In this document: piece after piece, positions 43,782-48,934 of the stretch | How positions within the stretch are numbered: the stretch's first letter is position 1 | How the letters are laid out: each line of letters opens with the position of its first letter | Origin: Escherichia coli | GTDB lineage: Bacteria; Pseudomonadota; Gammaproteobacteria; Enterobacterales; Enterobacteriaceae | Assembly (NCBI RefSeq): GCF_001677475.2 | Contig: NZ_CP015229.1 | Reading direction: 5' to 3' (one strand) | DNA length: 64,000 bases | The notes under the pieces: model-generated | What the model saw: the letters and a program-made list of their open reading frames with translations, nothing else | Database searches by the model: none | What the model was told of the DNA's origin: nothing | Made by a program: the position numbers and the translations under genes

Positions 43782-44801
43782 TTACCTGAAAGCAACAGTA
43801 GCCATAGCTAACGTCGTGTCGAGCATTCGGTTAGCAAAGCCCCATTCGTTATCGCACCAGACCAACGTTTTGATCAGGTGTGCACCACTGACCCGGGTTT
43901 GGGTGCCATCGACAATGGCACTGTGCGGATCGTGGTTAAAATCTACAGAGACCAACGGCAATTCCGTATAGTCAACTATACCATGAAATGCACCTTGTGC
44001 TGCTTTTTGCAGCAACAGGTTGACTTCATTGGCTTTTACAGGTTTCTTCACCGTCACGCTTAAATCGATTGCCGTCACATTTATGGTTGGCACACGTACC
44101 GCAATCGCCTCAAAGCGATCGTTAAATTGCGGAAAAAATCGTGTGATACCGGCGGCCAGTTTAGTATCGACCGGAATGATCGACTGGCTGGCTGCCCGGG
44201 TGCGACGCAGGTCAGGATGGTATGCATCAATAACCTGTTGATCGTGCATGGCGGAGTGAATTGTGGTCACAGTGCCGGACTCAATACCGTACGCATCATC
44301 TAACAATTTGATGACGGGAATTATGCAATTCGTGGTACAGGAAGCGTTAGAAACGATGCGGTGTTCCGCACGAAGTTGATCCTGATTGACGCCGTAAACA
44401 ACGGTCGCGTCGAGATCGTTACTGCCAGGATGTGAAAAGAGCACTTTTTTAGCCCCGGCGGCAATGTGCGCTTCGCCATGCTCGCGGGAGCCATATACGC
44501 CGGTGCAGTCGAGGACTACATCAACGCCAAGTTCACGCCAGGGGAGCGATTGCAGTGAACGTTCATGCAATACGCGGATGGCGTCATCACCAACAAAAAG
44601 TTGATCGCGTTCCTGTCGTACTTCCCATGCAAAACGGCCATGGCTGGTGTCATATTTCAACAAATGCGCCATGCCCGCAGCATCCGCCAGTTCGTTGATT
44701 GCCACCACGGTAATTTCCGCCCGACGTCCGGATTCATACAAAGCACGAACCACATTACGCCCGATGCGACCGAAGCCATTTATCGCTACGCGTACGGTCA
44801 T
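43782..44801 (-). CDS. epd: D-erythrose-4-phosphate dehydrogenase, 339 aa
   Basis: ORF 43782..44885; start at [15 protein letters not shown] (ATG 44801..44799); GAPDH-family Rossmann motif. Confidence 0.9.
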
Positions 44802-45028
44802 AGATCTCCTGCAAGGTTTTCCCTGAGCAAATTTGCCAGACAGAGTAATCCAGCAAATCGTCCGGGGAAACCTTACCTGTCGCAAACTGCGACTGATTGG
44901 TTAATTGTCGAACATTTAATCGACTGAAACGCTTCAGCTAGGATAAGCGAAACGTGGAATAAAAGGAATGATTGTCCAGTCAAAGAAGACAATTATCTGA
45001 CTTACGTCACGTTTTCAGCCCCGCCCCT

Positions 45029-45044
45029 GTGGAATTTATTCCAC
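45029..45044. promoter_or_regulatory. candidate operator: inverted repeat GTGGAAT-TT-ATTCCAC, with an extra GTGGAAT half-site at 44954..44960
   Basis: Perfect 7-2-7 inverted repeat in the divergent epd / PPC-ECF operon spacer; no binding factor identified. Confidence 0.3.
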
Positions 45045-45172
45045 TTTGCAGAATCACGAATAAGCGTAGCAAAATCTTTTCGTTGTGCCGTCACAAACCC
45101 TGACTTATATCAGAATATGACTGATGCAGCGTCGATATTATCCGCAATACGTCCGAGTTTCGGAGTACTCCA

Positions 45173-45604
45173 ATGATGACATTGCCCTACCCATATTCTT
45201 CCTCCGCACGCTTTTACTCGCTGCGCCTGCTCCCCGGGCAGGAAGTTCTCTCCCAATTGCGCGCCTTCACGCAGCAACAACAACTCCACGCCGCGTGGAT
45301 TGCAGGTTGTACCGGCAGTCTGACTGACGTCGCCTTACGCTATGCCGGACAAGAAAACACGGCCCTACTAAGCGGTAAGTTCGAAGTCATCGCATTGAAC
45401 GGCACGCTGGAACAGAGTGGTGAACATCTTCATCTCTGCGTTTCCGATCCACACGGCACGATGCTTGGCGGTCATATGATGCCCGGCTGTACCGTGCGGA
45501 CCACGCTTGAACTGGTGATCGGCTGCCTTGAGGAACTGGCGTTTAGCCGCCAGTCTTGCGCGCTTTCTGGTTACGACGAGTTGCATATTTCCCCCGTTAA
45601 ATAA
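45173..45604 (+). CDS. PPC/DUF296-like domain protein, 143 aa (first gene of the island operon)
   Basis: ORF 45173..45604; GGAG 9 nt upstream; domain assigned from memory of the family (AAWIxGCxGSL, HLHLCVSDPHG, GGH..PGCTV). Confidence 0.7.
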   Translation: MMTLPYPYSSSARFYSLRLLPGQEVLSQLRAFTQQQQLHAAWIAGCTGSLTDVALRYAGQENTALLSGKFEVIALNGTLEQSGEHLHLCVSDPHGTMLGGHMMPGCTVRTTLELVIGCLEELAFSRQSCALSGYDELHISPVK

Positions 45605-45626
45605 CTACTTTCAGAGAGGTTTTCTT

Positions 45627-46205
45627 ATGGCGCGTCGCCACTTTTCCAGTCAGGCGTTGGTGTTGATCGTTATATCTATCGCCATCAATATGATCGGCGG
45701 GCAACTGGCCAGCATGGTCAAATTACCTATATTTCTCGACTCCATCGGCACACTTATTAGCGCGGTACTGCTTGGTCCGGTGATCGGGATGCTGACCGGC
45801 TTACTGACCAATTTACTCTGGGGATTGCTAACCGACCCGATCGCCGCCGCATTTGCGCCCGTCGCGATGGTCATCGGCCTGGTCGCCGGTTGGCTGGCGC
45901 GAGCGGGTTGGTTCCGCACCCTGCCAAAAGTTGTTGTCAGCGGCGTGATTATTACGCTTGTGGTAACGGTCGTCGCTGTACCGCTGCGTACTGCGCTGTT
46001 CGGCGGTGTCACCGGTAGCGGAGCCGATTTGTTCGTTGCCTGGATGCACTCAATGGGGCAAAACCTGGTGGAGTCGGTGGCGATTACGGTGATAGGCGCG
46101 AACCTGGTCGATAAAGTTCTCACAGCGGTGATTGTCTGGCTTTTACTGCGTCAGCTGCCGATTCGCACCACGCGCCATTTTCCGGCAATGGCAGCCGTGC
46201 GCTAA
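45627..46205 (+). CDS. ECF-transporter substrate-specific (S) component-like membrane protein, 192 aa
   Basis: 3' part of ORF 45528..46205; start at MARRHFSSQ (ATG 45627) with GAGAGG upstream; about 6 hydrophobic helices. Confidence 0.65.
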   Translation: MARRHFSSQALVLIVISIAINMIGGQLASMVKLPIFLDSIGTLISAVLLGPVIGMLTGLLTNLLWGLLTDPIAAAFAPVAMVIGLVAGWLARAGWFRTLPKVVVSGVIITLVVTVVAVPLRTALFGGVTGSGADLFVAWMHSMGQNLVESVAITVIGANLVDKVLTAVIVWLLLRQLPIRTTRHFPAMAAVR

Positions 46206-46913
46206 ATGCATCCGTTTACCTCATTAACGCTGTGGGCGCTGGCAGCCTGCACCACGCTAATCCTGCCCGCGCAGACCATTTTGCCGGTCTATAGCGCGGC
46301 GACCTTTCTCTGCCTTATTGCGTTAAAGTCCACGCGGCGGCGAGCAAAATATGTCGTCTGGCTGATGTTCTCGCTGGGGGCTGGACTGTGGCTGGTACAC
46401 GGTGGCTGGCTGACAGAATGGCTAAGCGGCACGCCACGCTCGCCAGAACGGTGGGCGCATGCTATTACGCTCTGGTTGCGGATTCTGGCGATTGTTTCAA
46501 CCTCGCAGTTGTGGATGCAATTCGTCCCCGTGCAACGTTTTATCCGCGCTTTGTTTGCTTCTCGCCTGCCGCCAGGCGTCGCTTATCTGTTTGCCGGGCC
46601 GTTATTGGTCGTTGAGCAGTTAAAACGGCAATTAGCGATTATTCATGAAGCGCAGCGTGCCCGCGGCGTGCCTCTGGATGAGGGCTGGTATCAACGTTTA
46701 CATGCGATGCCCGCGTTAATTATTCCGCTAACACACAATGCGCTAAACGATCTTGCTGTCCGTGGTGCGGCGCTGGATATGCGGGCATTTCGGATCCACA
46801 GCCGACGAACAACGTTGTGGGCACCAGCCGATAGCCCCCTACAACGCGTAGCGCGTTACACCATGATCTTGCTGATGCTGGCAGAATTCGGAGCGTGGAT
46901 ATGGTTACGTTAG
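46206..46913 (+). CDS. ECF-transporter transmembrane (T) component, CbiQ/EcfT family, 235 aa
   Basis: ORF 46206..46913; start abuts the previous stop (TAAATG); C-terminal coupling-helix motifs QRARG and AVRGAA. Confidence 0.75.
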   Translation: MHPFTSLTLWALAACTTLILPAQTILPVYSAATFLCLIALKSTRRRAKYVVWLMFSLGAGLWLVHGGWLTEWLSGTPRSPERWAHAITLWLRILAIVSTSQLWMQFVPVQRFIRALFASRLPPGVAYLFAGPLLVVEQLKRQLAIIHEAQRARGVPLDEGWYQRLHAMPALIIPLTHNALNDLAVRGAALDMRAFRIHSRRTTLWAPADSPLQRVARYTMILLMLAEFGAWIWLR

Positions 46914-47578
46914 AACAGTTTCGCTATTGCCCGACAAACTCAACGCATCCTCCGTTCTGTTATGACTTTCACTATGTCAAACCGGGGATAGTCGCCATCT
47001 TTGGTGACAACGGCAGTGGCAAAAGTACGCTGGCGCAACTGATGGCGGGCTGGTATCCAGACTTTCTACCAGGAGAGATAACCGGCACGGGGACACTTCT
47101 CGGTACGCCCATTGGGCATCTCCCGCTTAATGAACAATCCGCCACCATCCAGCTCGTCCAGCAATCGCCCTATTTGCAGCTCTCCGGCTGTACCTTTAGC
47201 GTGGAAGAAGAAGTTGCCTTTGGGCCAGAAAATCTGTGTCTTGCTGAAAAAGAGATTATGGCGAGGATTGATGCCGCCCTGACTCTGAGCGAGTGCCAGC
47301 CGTTGCGCCATCGACACCCGGCAACACTCTCCGGTGGAGAGACACAGCGCGTGGTCATCGCCTGCGCTATCGCGATGCAGCCAAAACTATTAATTCTTGA
47401 TGAAGCCTTTAGCCGCCTGACGCCGCAGGCCAGCGAAATGCTGTTGCAGCGCTTACAACACTGGGCGTTTGAACGTGGTTCGCTGATTATTCTTTTTGAA
47501 CGTCATCGCACACCTTTCCTGAACTACTGCCAGCAAGCGTGGCAACTGCAAAACGGAGCGCTCCAGCCACTATGTTAA
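46895..47578 (+). CDS. ABC ATPase (EcfA-like), 227 aa
   Basis: ORF 46895..47578; Walker A GDNGSGKST, signature LSGGETQR, Walker B LLILDEA; overlaps the T gene by 19 nt. Confidence 0.85.
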   Translation: MDMVTLEQFRYCPTNSTHPPFCYDFHYVKPGIVAIFGDNGSGKSTLAQLMAGWYPDFLPGEITGTGTLLGTPIGHLPLNEQSATIQLVQQSPYLQLSGCTFSVEEEVAFGPENLCLAEKEIMARIDAALTLSECQPLRHRHPATLSGGETQRVVIACAIAMQPKLLILDEAFSRLTPQASEMLLQRLQHWAFERGSLIILFERHRTPFLNYCQQAWQLQNGALQPLC

Positions 47579-48249
47579 CGTTAAATCAGGTAACTTATCG
47601 CTGGCCTGGCGCGGCAACGGATTGTCTTTGCGACATTTCTCTGCAACTCAAACAAGGCGAATGGCTGGCGCTGACCGGCGACAATGGCGCAGGGAAATCG
47701 ACGCTGTTACGAGTAATGGCAGGTCTTCTTACGCCCACAGCCGGTACAGTTATGCTGCAACAACAGACGATGAAAAACCTGAAAAACCGCCAGCGCGCGG
47801 CAAAGATTGGCGTACTGTTTCAGGAAGCGGAAAACCAGCTTTTTCACAGCACCGTCGCTGACGAGATCGCATTTGGTTTGAAACTGCAAAAATGCCCGGC
47901 GGATGAAATCACTCAACGTACCCATGCTGCCCTGCAATGCTGTCAGTTAGCAGACACTGCCAGCGCGCACCCGTTGGATCTGCATAGTGCGCAGCGACGG
48001 ATGGTCGCCGTCGCCTGCCTGGAAGCACTCTCTCCGCCACTATTGCTGCTGGACGAGCCGAGTCGGGATTTTGACGAAAATTGGTTGAGCGTGTTTGAAA
48101 GCTGGCTGGAGAAGTGCCGCCAGCGAGGCTCGAGCGTCGTAGCAATCAGTCATGACGCCGCATTTACCCGGCGTCATTTCTCTCGTGTGGTGCGACTGGA
48201 AGATGGTGTAATCAGGAACGTTAATCCACCAGACGATATTCACCCGTAG
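47572..48249 (+). CDS. ABC ATPase (EcfA'-like) with a degenerate signature motif, 225 aa
   Basis: 3' part of ORF 47539..48249; start at MLTLNQVTY (ATG 47572, ATGTTAA overlap with the upstream stop); Walker A GDNGAGKST, Walker B LLLLDEP, H-loop ISHD; signature position reads LHSAQR. Confidence 0.8.
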   Translation: MLTLNQVTYRWPGAATDCLCDISLQLKQGEWLALTGDNGAGKSTLLRVMAGLLTPTAGTVMLQQQTMKNLKNRQRAAKIGVLFQEAENQLFHSTVADEIAFGLKLQKCPADEITQRTHAALQCCQLADTASAHPLDLHSAQRRMVAVACLEALSPPLLLLDEPSRDFDENWLSVFESWLEKCRQRGSSVVAISHDAAFTRRHFSRVVRLEDGVIRNVNPPDDIHP

Positions 48250-48934
48250 CGGTCATCATTAAAGTCAAATTTGCAGGCAGACTCTCTTCCAGCACCCGGC
48301 GAACATTCGGCCCGTCGGTACGGTCATAAAAAGCTTCTGCGTCTGCCAGTGATAACCCTCCCGCCAGCTTGCGCCCCACCAGTCGTTCCCGCAACGCAGT
48401 AGCTGGCGCATTGATAAAGATCGAGAAATCACAAAATTGCGCAAGCTGGCACCACTTCTCGTCGTCCAGCAACAACCAGTTTCCTTCGACGATGACGAGT
48501 GGTGCGGTAACGTGCAACGCATCTTCAACAGGATCATGCTTTTGTCGATCATACTGCGGCCACGCACAATCCCCTTCCACTACCTGGCGCAGGTTTTCCG
48601 CCAGTTTCGCTACATCGAATGTCTCTGGTGCGCCTTTGAAGGGGCGCAATTGATGCGCATCCAGCCAGCTATTGTAATGGTGAAAACCATCCATCGGGAG
48701 TGTCTGAATAGCGGGTAGTTCCGGGTCTTGTTGCGCGAGATATTCCCAGAAGGTGGTTAGGGTAGATTTACCCGTCCCCGGCGGAGCGCAAAGAAAAACC
48801 ACCGTACGCCGCTGCGGATTTACCGTCTGTAAGGCCGCCAGCATACGCAGTAGCGTTTTATGAACATTCTCAATTTCATCATCAGAGTACTGCGCCTGTA
48901 CCTTTAGTCCATTCACCGTCAGTTCGATTTTCAC
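48221..48934 (-). CDS. yggC: P-loop nucleoside/pantothenate kinase-like protein YggC, 237 aa
   Basis: ORF 48221..48934; P-loop GTGKST; 3' end overlaps the convergent EcfA' gene by 29 nt. Confidence 0.85.
   Translation of the reverse strand: MKIELTVNGLKVQAQYSDDEIENVHKTLLRMLAALQTVNPQRRTVVFLCAPPGTGKSTLTTFWEYLAQQDPELPAIQTLPMDGFHHYNSWLDAHQLRPFKGAPETFDVAKLAENLRQVVEGDCAWPQYDRQKHDPVEDALHVTAPLVIVEGNWLLLDDEKWCQLAQFCDFSIFINAPATALRERLVGRKLAGGLSLADAEAFYDRTDGPNVRRVLEESLPANLTLMMTATGEYRLVD

Follow-up and report, generated by a model that had tools for sequence, protein, structure and literature searches.

The region 45173-48249 of a 64,000-nucleotide stretch of Escherichia coli DNA (contig NZ_CP015229.1 of assembly GCF_001677475.2; hereafter the window) is, judged from its sequence, a dedicated (group-I-like) operon for an ATP-binding cassette (ABC) importer of the energy-coupling factor (ECF) type, in which five genes encode, in this order, a PPC domain protein, the S component, the T component, and two ATPases that are referred to here as A1 and A2. 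In the reading that we favor, with a probability of roughly 0.75, the T component carries A1 and A2 as an obligate heterodimer, in which one composite site with consensus motifs (site II) would hydrolyze ATP, while the other one (site I) would be degenerate, bind ATP with little or no hydrolysis, and serve as a hinge. An earlier note made from the DNA letters alone had already pointed to this asymmetry.

According to the earlier note, A2 combines a canonical Walker A, Walker B, and H-loop (ISHD) with the sequence LHSAQR at the position where LSGGQ is expected. All of these elements could be located (GDNGAGKST, LLLLDE, and AISHD for the canonical motifs), and the stretch 47980-47994 indeed aligns with the signature of solved ABC ATPases: HMMER pairs LDLHSAQRRMVAVA of A2 with LSGGQKQRIAIA of ABCB4 and ABCB1, which places LHSAQ opposite LSGGQ, and the HMMER alignment with 'klSGGQkqrlaiA' of the ArtP-type ATPases 4YMS, 3C41, and 2OLJ contains no gap between the signature and the H-loop, Walker B included. 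An alignment of 298 nucleotide-binding domains (NBDs) from the 150 closest cluster representatives (50 % identity), which includes canonical ECF-type ATPases, holds mostly L (277/295), S (246/294), G (172/294), G (263/294), and Q/E (261/294) in the columns under L-H-S-A-Q of A2, and His (257/288) in the H-loop column. The motif positions are based on the alignments with ABCB and ArtP chains and on these 298 domains. When the whole of A2 was scanned, neither 'SGG' nor 'LSG' was found anywhere, and a canonical LSGGQ elsewhere in the protein is thereby ruled out; neither of the two observations that the earlier note had named as contrary to its proposal, such a second motif or a stretch off the signature position, was made for A2.

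For A1, the earlier note had listed Walker A, an LSGGE signature, and Walker B, but an atypical H-loop region (FERHR), and each of these was located in the protein, together with a Q-loop (VQQS). The F-E-R at the H-loop position is invariant in 120 enterobacterial A1 orthologues, with a variable next residue (N, H, R, T, and others), and xFER is found in the large majority of 75 A1 loci, across which the position mostly reads E-R, E-K, or E-Q; His is kept only in two Chloroflexota loci. Counted from a conserved Gly, the column of the switch His is occupied by Arg, and in one HMMER alignment, shifted by one residue, it is occupied by Glu; in either register, the H-loop of A1 is devoid of a conserved His. 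At 47405-47422, Walker B of A1 is furthermore followed by Ala instead of Pro, which the relatives in the 298-domain alignment hold in 276 of 290 cases, and the D-loop reads SRLT instead of S-x-L-D, that is, with Thr for an Asp that is present in 258 of 270 relatives. DEAFSRLT occurs in 52/75 A1 loci, and both the Ala after Walker B and the SRLT D-loop are conserved in the family.

In the head-to-tail dimer of ABC proteins, one NBD supplies Walker A, Walker B, and the H-loop of each ATP site, and its partner supplies the signature. By virtue of this geometry, the defective H-loop of A1 and the defective signature of A2 would come together in one and the same composite site. The motifs therefore support a heterodimer with one degenerate site (P-loop of A1 plus LHSAQ of A2) and one consensus site (P-loop of A2 plus LSGGE of A1), in line with the prediction of the earlier note and on firmer grounds than it had given. 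To the latter site, A2 would contribute Walker A, the Q-loop, D-E of Walker B, SHD, and the D-loop Asp. Two ABC ATPase domains are encoded together with a T component, and ECF ATPase models are the best NCBIfam matches of both. The 1:1 heterodimeric pairing is supported by the overlaps between the genes for T and A1 (13 nt) and for A1 and A2 (7 nt within 'ATGTTAA'), which also suggest that the translation of T, A1, and A2 may be coupled, and by natural fusions among the orthologues, both of A1 with A2 (P0123 and L003) and of T with A1 and A2 (P0152, L005, L063, L068, and L070).

The orthologue scan, in which the S-component alignment was run against one genome per species, yielded 72 loci. They belong to Enterobacteriaceae, Morganellaceae (Proteus, Providencia), Budviciaceae, Aeromonas, Crenobacter, Synergistaceae, Desulfobulbales, Chloroflexota (Anaerolineales, Herpetosiphon), and Moorella, and span Gammaproteobacteria, Betaproteobacteria, Desulfobacterota, Synergistota, and Chloroflexota in addition to Moorella. 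The signature is non-canonical in 72/72 complete A2 genes, with LHxAQ and LHxGQ (conserved as LH[TSAVI][AG]Q) in Enterobacterales, LNAGQ and LDAGQ in Aeromonas, LNxxE in Crenobacter and Synergistaceae, L/FG[YF]SE in Desulfobulbales, LSLSD and LGYSG in Chloroflexota, and LPYSL in Moorella. Among the close A2 orthologues (Escherichia, Salmonella, Citrobacter, Klebsiella, Atlantibacter, and Leclercia), LH[T/S/A]AQRR is present in 116/120, along with AISHD and an intact P-loop. D-E of Walker B is kept in 72/72 A2 proteins, and the H-loop [ST]HD was scored in 70/72 by script; the other two are domain mis-assignments of the script, and every complete A2 keeps the His. In A1, both LSGG[EQ] and the Walker A Gly-Lys are kept in 75/75 loci, and LSGGE is found in 119/119 close orthologues.

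Further erosion across the loci falls on the site with the A1 P-loop and never on the other one. This one-sided erosion, together with the intact P-loop of A1, indicates a site that would have been released from catalytic constraint but kept for another role. In Aeromonas (L059 and L060), Walker B of A1 reads LLILDQA, with Gln in place of the catalytic Glu, beside LDAGQ in A2; going by these motifs, the same site would be disabled even more completely in this genus.

A decaying operon, that is, a non-functional accessory island under loss, as in the strain K-12, of which the degenerate motif would be a mark, is effectively refuted. K-12 and 39 % of the complete E. coli genomes are without the cluster, and A2 is split in Trabulsiella; however, dN/dS is low for all five genes (0.10-0.31 in comparison with E. 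coli EDL933), 3319 E. coli genomes and about 70 other species have intact frames, and the 'degenerate' residues are themselves conserved. Their conservation also rules out chance, and the idea of a pseudogene was rejected on the grounds of dN/dS and conservation. The split A2 of Trabulsiella odontotermitis (L015), which is distributed over two reading frames, is the sole apparently disrupted copy among the species representatives and reflects either a frameshift or an assembly error.

In the mechanism proposed here, ATP would bind to both P-loops. Site I, composed of Walker A and Walker B of A1 and LHSAQ of A2, is devoid of the signature Ser, of both Gly, and of the switch His (Glu-Arg instead) and would hold a long-lived ATP as a 'hinge', through which the dimer stays engaged. 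Site II, composed of Walker A, D-E of Walker B, and the H-loop His of A2 and LSGGE of A1, would be the hydrolyzing site, and hydrolysis of one ATP per cycle would drive closing and opening of the dimer, which would move the coupling helices of the T component and thus let the S component topple. The conserved basic or polar substitutes, namely His/Asn in the signature and Glu-Arg in the H-loop, may conceivably stabilize the bound ATP. Because the P-loop Lys, the Walker B Asp, and the A-loop Tyr of A1 are conserved, site I most likely still binds ATP, which it probably hydrolyzes not at all or only very slowly. Signature Ser, second Gly, and H-loop His contact the γ-phosphate, and HlyB, MalK, CFTR, TAP, and TM287/288 hydrolyze no or far less ATP once these residues are lost. 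We infer non-hydrolysis at site I from such established ABC enzymology; the binding of ATP at this site, the stoichiometry of one ATP, and the hinge role are likewise inferred.

Two other views of site I have to be weighed. That both sites are catalytically active, with the odd residues as an alternative catalytic solution and a consumption of two ATP per cycle, appears unlikely: A1 retains the Walker A Lys, Asp-Glu of Walker B, and the Q-loop Gln, the substituting residues are conserved and polar or basic rather than random, and some heterodimeric exporters are generally known to hydrolyze slowly at their degenerate site, but the loss of the signature Ser/Gly and of the switch His is, from established ABC enzymology, strongly deleterious wherever it was tested. 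Moreover, the same site gains more disabling changes in other lineages, such as the exchange of the Walker B Glu for Gln in Aeromonas and signatures of the FGYSE and LPYSL types, and in the wider clade of related fused ATPases (see below), Walker B of the N domain reads DQ, DD, DA, DK, or DN, which fits a released catalytic constraint. A site I that binds no nucleotide at all, with A1 as a structural pseudo-ATPase that docks A2 onto T, is very unlikely. The Walker A G-x-N-G-S-G-K-S/T, the Walker B Asp, and the aromatic A-loop residue of A1 are kept in essentially all orthologues over several phyla, a pattern that would scarcely be expected unless nucleotide binding were under selection, even though ATP might be enclosed less tightly as a combined result of the degenerate signature, the altered D-loop, and the lack of the switch His, and A1 scores below A2 against every ABC model.

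The heterodimer with one hydrolyzing and one ATP-holding site therefore remains the preferred reading, against which several points have to be held. The exact register of the A1 H-loop is ambiguous by one residue; distant A2 orthologues retain the second Gly (LHAGQ), which is a milder change; the catalytic Glu of A1 is kept in most species, so that residual slow hydrolysis is plausible; and the A1 D-loop (SRLT, without Asp) faces the consensus site, which is consequently not wholly textbook and may also be tuned.

The asymmetry extends well beyond the module. Among the 150 closest cluster representatives of A2, 142 are fused double ATPases, and 96 of these 142 combine a canonical signature in the N domain with a non-canonical one in the C domain (LSxGQ-like or fully degenerate); in 32, both halves are canonical. 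All 142 C domains retain D-E and the switch His. The H-loop His is lacking in 29 N domains, 28 of which are paired with a non-canonical C signature, and the Walker B Glu in 14 N domains; in P0236, the domain order is reversed, and the defects are swapped to match. Three sampled asymmetric fused members adjoin genes for CbiQ-family T components, which identifies them as ECF-type. With about two thirds of the nearest fused ATPases being asymmetric, the trait belongs to the clade rather than being a peculiarity of the E. coli locus, and the asymmetry of A1 and A2 is ordinary for their clade.

Both ATPases lie outside the curated families of ECF ATPases, as their scores are far below the respective cutoffs. 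Against TIGR04520 and TIGR04521 (the group II EcfA1/EcfA2 equivalogs, with cutoffs of 315 and 330), A1 reaches 119 and 106 bits and A2 146 and 150 bits, and against the CbiO subfamily TIGR01166 (cutoff 211.8), A1 reaches 105.8 and A2 126.9 bits. An assignment of the two proteins to EcfA versus EcfA' was dropped, because both are nearest to the same chain (4huq_B) and their NCBIfam scores are nearly tied.

Group II modules (EcfA-EcfA'-EcfT), for example, of Lactobacillus brevis (4HUQ/4RFS), L. delbrueckii (5D3M/5JSZ), and Thermotoga maritima (4HLU), resemble the E. coli module in combining two ATPases, a CbiQ-like T component with two x-R-G motifs, and a membrane S component, and they are the closest solved relatives with single NBDs (110 and 88 bits to 4huq_B). 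To our knowledge, the solved ECF structures have two consensus sites. Unlike in A1 and A2, consensus motifs are found in both EcfA and EcfA', and the Escherichia proteins are without the C-terminal domain of about 50 amino acids of EcfA and EcfA'. In addition, the S gene lies within the operon here (dedicated), whereas in group II the S genes are scattered around the genome, and a PPC gene is attached here. In Proteus and Providencia (L042-L046) and in L004 (5172-6822), A1 and A2 are about 50 amino acids longer (281 and 273 amino acids in L004); these longer proteins bear C-terminal extensions like those of EcfA/EcfA', which the 225-amino-acid proteins of Escherichia are without. Even a canonical ECF transporter shows a functional asymmetry: ECF-FolT2 under turnover was found to retain ATP in EcfA and ADP in EcfA', which suggested non-synchronous hydrolysis (PMC10368641).

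Dedicated ECF systems provide the other comparison. In group I systems with a fused double ATPase (YkoEDC type), two different NBDs, which are often fused, are likewise encoded in a dedicated operon; the N-canonical/C-degenerate polarity of the fused relatives nearest to A2 matches that of A1 and A2, and fused orthologues of the module exist (P0123 and P0152). The S component of this type, however, belongs to the YkoE family, in contrast to the CD3073-like PF12822 protein found here, and neither a THI-box nor another riboswitch was found upstream of the module. The motifs of YkoD are not discussed in the paper on YkoE (PMC5037267). CbiMNQO/NikMNQO and BioMNY also share the dedicated operon and a CbiQ-like T component, and A1 and A2 match the CbiO model, but these systems employ a homodimer of one ATPase with two identical consensus sites rather than two distinct ATPases.

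Non-identical NBDs, with deviations in a catalytic loop of one (here the H-loop) and in the signature of its partner that converge on one site beside a consensus site, are familiar from TM287/288, TmrAB, BmrCD, TAP1/2, CFTR, MRP1/SUR, and the importers RbsA and NupO, and ABCC-like signatures of the LSxGQ type as well as fully degenerate ones also occur in the wider clade near A2. These are exporters of type IV or importers of types I/II, whereas the present system is of the ECF type (type III), with a single T component and a toppling S component. Many of the classical degenerate sites have furthermore lost the Walker B Glu, which A1 retains except in Aeromonas. Degenerate sites belong to the textbook picture of heterodimeric exporters and have been described for some importers as well (PMC3971661; PMC11466899), while full-text literature searches returned no description of such sites in ECF transporters. 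The wording of the earlier note, that the pattern is known in some ABC systems and that its meaning in ECF modules is worth testing, is thus accurate as far as the searchable literature goes.

In 74/76 loci from at least six phyla, a PPC gene immediately precedes the S gene (one of the two remaining loci is truncated on its upstream side, where the sequence ends), and the order S-T-A1-A2 is kept in 75/76 loci, so that PPC-S-T-A1-A2 is a conserved module, in which, as in dedicated (group I) ECF systems, the S gene stands beside its own A and T genes. A structure search identified the PPC protein as orthologous to the solved Salmonella proteins 2HX0 and 2NMU (E 6e-69), which carry the name 'putative DNA-binding protein'. 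The S component matches NF045596 ('CD3073 family putative ECF S component') with 138.1 bits (E 2e-40), short of the cutoff of 180, and is accordingly related to the CD3073 family yet outside that equivalog; its orthologues carry Pfam PF12822, it is 51-99 % identical across the 72 species, and no solved structure matched it at E <= 1. As expected for an ECF (type III) importer, an integral-membrane S component is present, and no gene for a soluble binding protein was found in the cluster. The T component matches Pfam CbiQ weakly (E 3.6e-4), its orthologue is called 'ECF transporter transmembrane component T' by PGAP, and it bears two x-Arg-Gly motifs of the coupling helices, ARG at residue 152 (46659-46667) and VRG at residue 185 (46758-46766). 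Neither the PPC protein nor T matched a family in the NCBIfam search, the PADLOC models of defense systems gave no match for PPC, S, or T, and a literature search on this E. coli/Salmonella operon or on bacterial PPC proteins returned nothing specific. No Rfam match at E <= 1 was obtained upstream of or within 44800-48400, where a riboswitch or other RNA element was sought, so that RNA gives no hint of the substrate. Genes of the TAXI-type TRAP family (an NMT1_3 binding protein and a fused DctM) adjoin the PPC-ECF module in two metagenomic contexts that are unrelated to each other, which may reflect a functional link or coincidence.

In E. coli, epd (43782-44885) and a yggC-like kinase gene (48221-48934), both on the minus strand, flank the five co-oriented genes. 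The 3' ends of A2 and of the latter, convergent nucleoside/nucleotide kinase gene overlap by 29 nt (48221-48249). The RefSeq annotation of E. coli O157:H7 EDL933 lists these five genes too, and the boundaries of A2 (47572-48249) match the PGAP gene call in that strain. Of 5426 complete E. coli genomes, 3319 (61 %) carry the intact cluster, with 95-97 % identity, and 39 % are without it; in K-12 MG1655 (L079), which is without it, epd directly abuts yggC, and in comparison with this strain the five-gene cluster (44886-48249 of the window) represents an accessory insertion between epd and yggC. The synonymous divergence (dS) from EDL933 (L001) varies about ten-fold over the 3-kb cluster, from 0.38 in the PPC gene and 0.15 in T to 0.09 in S and A1 and 0.04 in A2, and this unevenness suggests a recombinant, mosaic history of the allele. 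In E. coli NZ_CP180597.1 (H12), the match covers no more than the initial 92 nt of the query (45100-45191) and lies over cmtA; the epd-cmtA interval may thus have been deleted or rearranged in this strain.

Table 1. Genes and motifs of the PPC-ECF module (positions in the window) and adjoining transporter genes in two orthologous loci (positions in the respective locus).
Feature	Position	Strand	Remarks
PPC/PCC (PF03479, DUF296) domain protein, 143 aa, first module gene	45173..45604	+	PGAP name in EDL933; orthologue of 2HX0/2NMU
ECF S component (substrate-binding membrane subunit), 192 aa	45627..46205	+	NF045596 match below cutoff; orthologues carry PF12822
ECF T component (EcfT/CbiQ-like), 235 aa	46206..46913	+	Pfam CbiQ E 3.6e-4; PGAP name
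ATPase A1, 225 aa	46901..47578	+	canonical Walker A, Q-loop, LSGGE, Walker B D-E; without H-loop His and D-loop Asp
A1 Walker A GDNGSGKST (P-loop of the putative degenerate site)	47003..47029	+	close orthologues: G-x-N-G-[SC]-G-K-S-T
A1 signature LSGGE, canonical	47327..47341	+	would complete the consensus site with the A2 P-loop
A1 Walker B plus D-loop LLILDEAFSRLT	47387..47422	+	Walker B LLILDE, D-E kept
A1 H-loop position F-E-R, switch His replaced	47495..47503	+	region LIILFERHR 47483-47509
ATPase A2, 225 aa, ATG at 47572	47572..48249	+	canonical Walker A, Q-loop, Walker B, D-loop, H-loop; degenerate signature
A2 Walker A GDNGAGKST (P-loop of the putative consensus site)	47677..47703	+	
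A2 Q-loop LFQE	47815-47826	+	
A2 degenerate signature L-H-S-A-Q, in place of LSGGQ	47980..47994	+	
A2 Walker B LLLLDE, with catalytic Glu	48040..48057	+	
A2 D-loop SRDFD	48061-48075	+	
A2 H-loop AISHD, with switch His	48142..48156	+	
TAXI-type TRAP genes near the module	L004 7782-10796; L005 1889-4735		

The principle of a degenerate site is itself textbook, and the gain is incremental rather than conceptual: going by its motifs, the locus is an ECF-type instance of the well-known ABC design with one consensus and one degenerate site, found over a broad phylogenetic range. Less expected at this locus is the attached PPC protein. ECF transporters have been studied almost entirely by means of group II modules with two consensus sites, and a natural ECF family with one disabled site would be a ready-made system for determining how many ATP are used per toppling cycle, all the more as the family ranges from Escherichia to Chloroflexota in split, A1-A2 fused, and T-A1-A2 fused forms. 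As a tentative and rather speculative extension, PPC-S-T-A1-A2 might constitute a distinct and widespread class of ECF importers (at least six phyla) with a single catalytic ATP site, a permanent ATP hinge in the other site, and a dedicated cytoplasmic PPC (DUF296) partner, which could accept the substrate, process it as an enzyme, or serve as a regulator. If true, this class would for the first time offer a natural system in which to test whether a single ATP per cycle is enough for the toppling of S, and it would provide the first functional context for bacterial PPC proteins. The accessory status of the cluster in E. coli (present in EDL933, not in K-12) eases the search for a phenotype by deletion and complementation.

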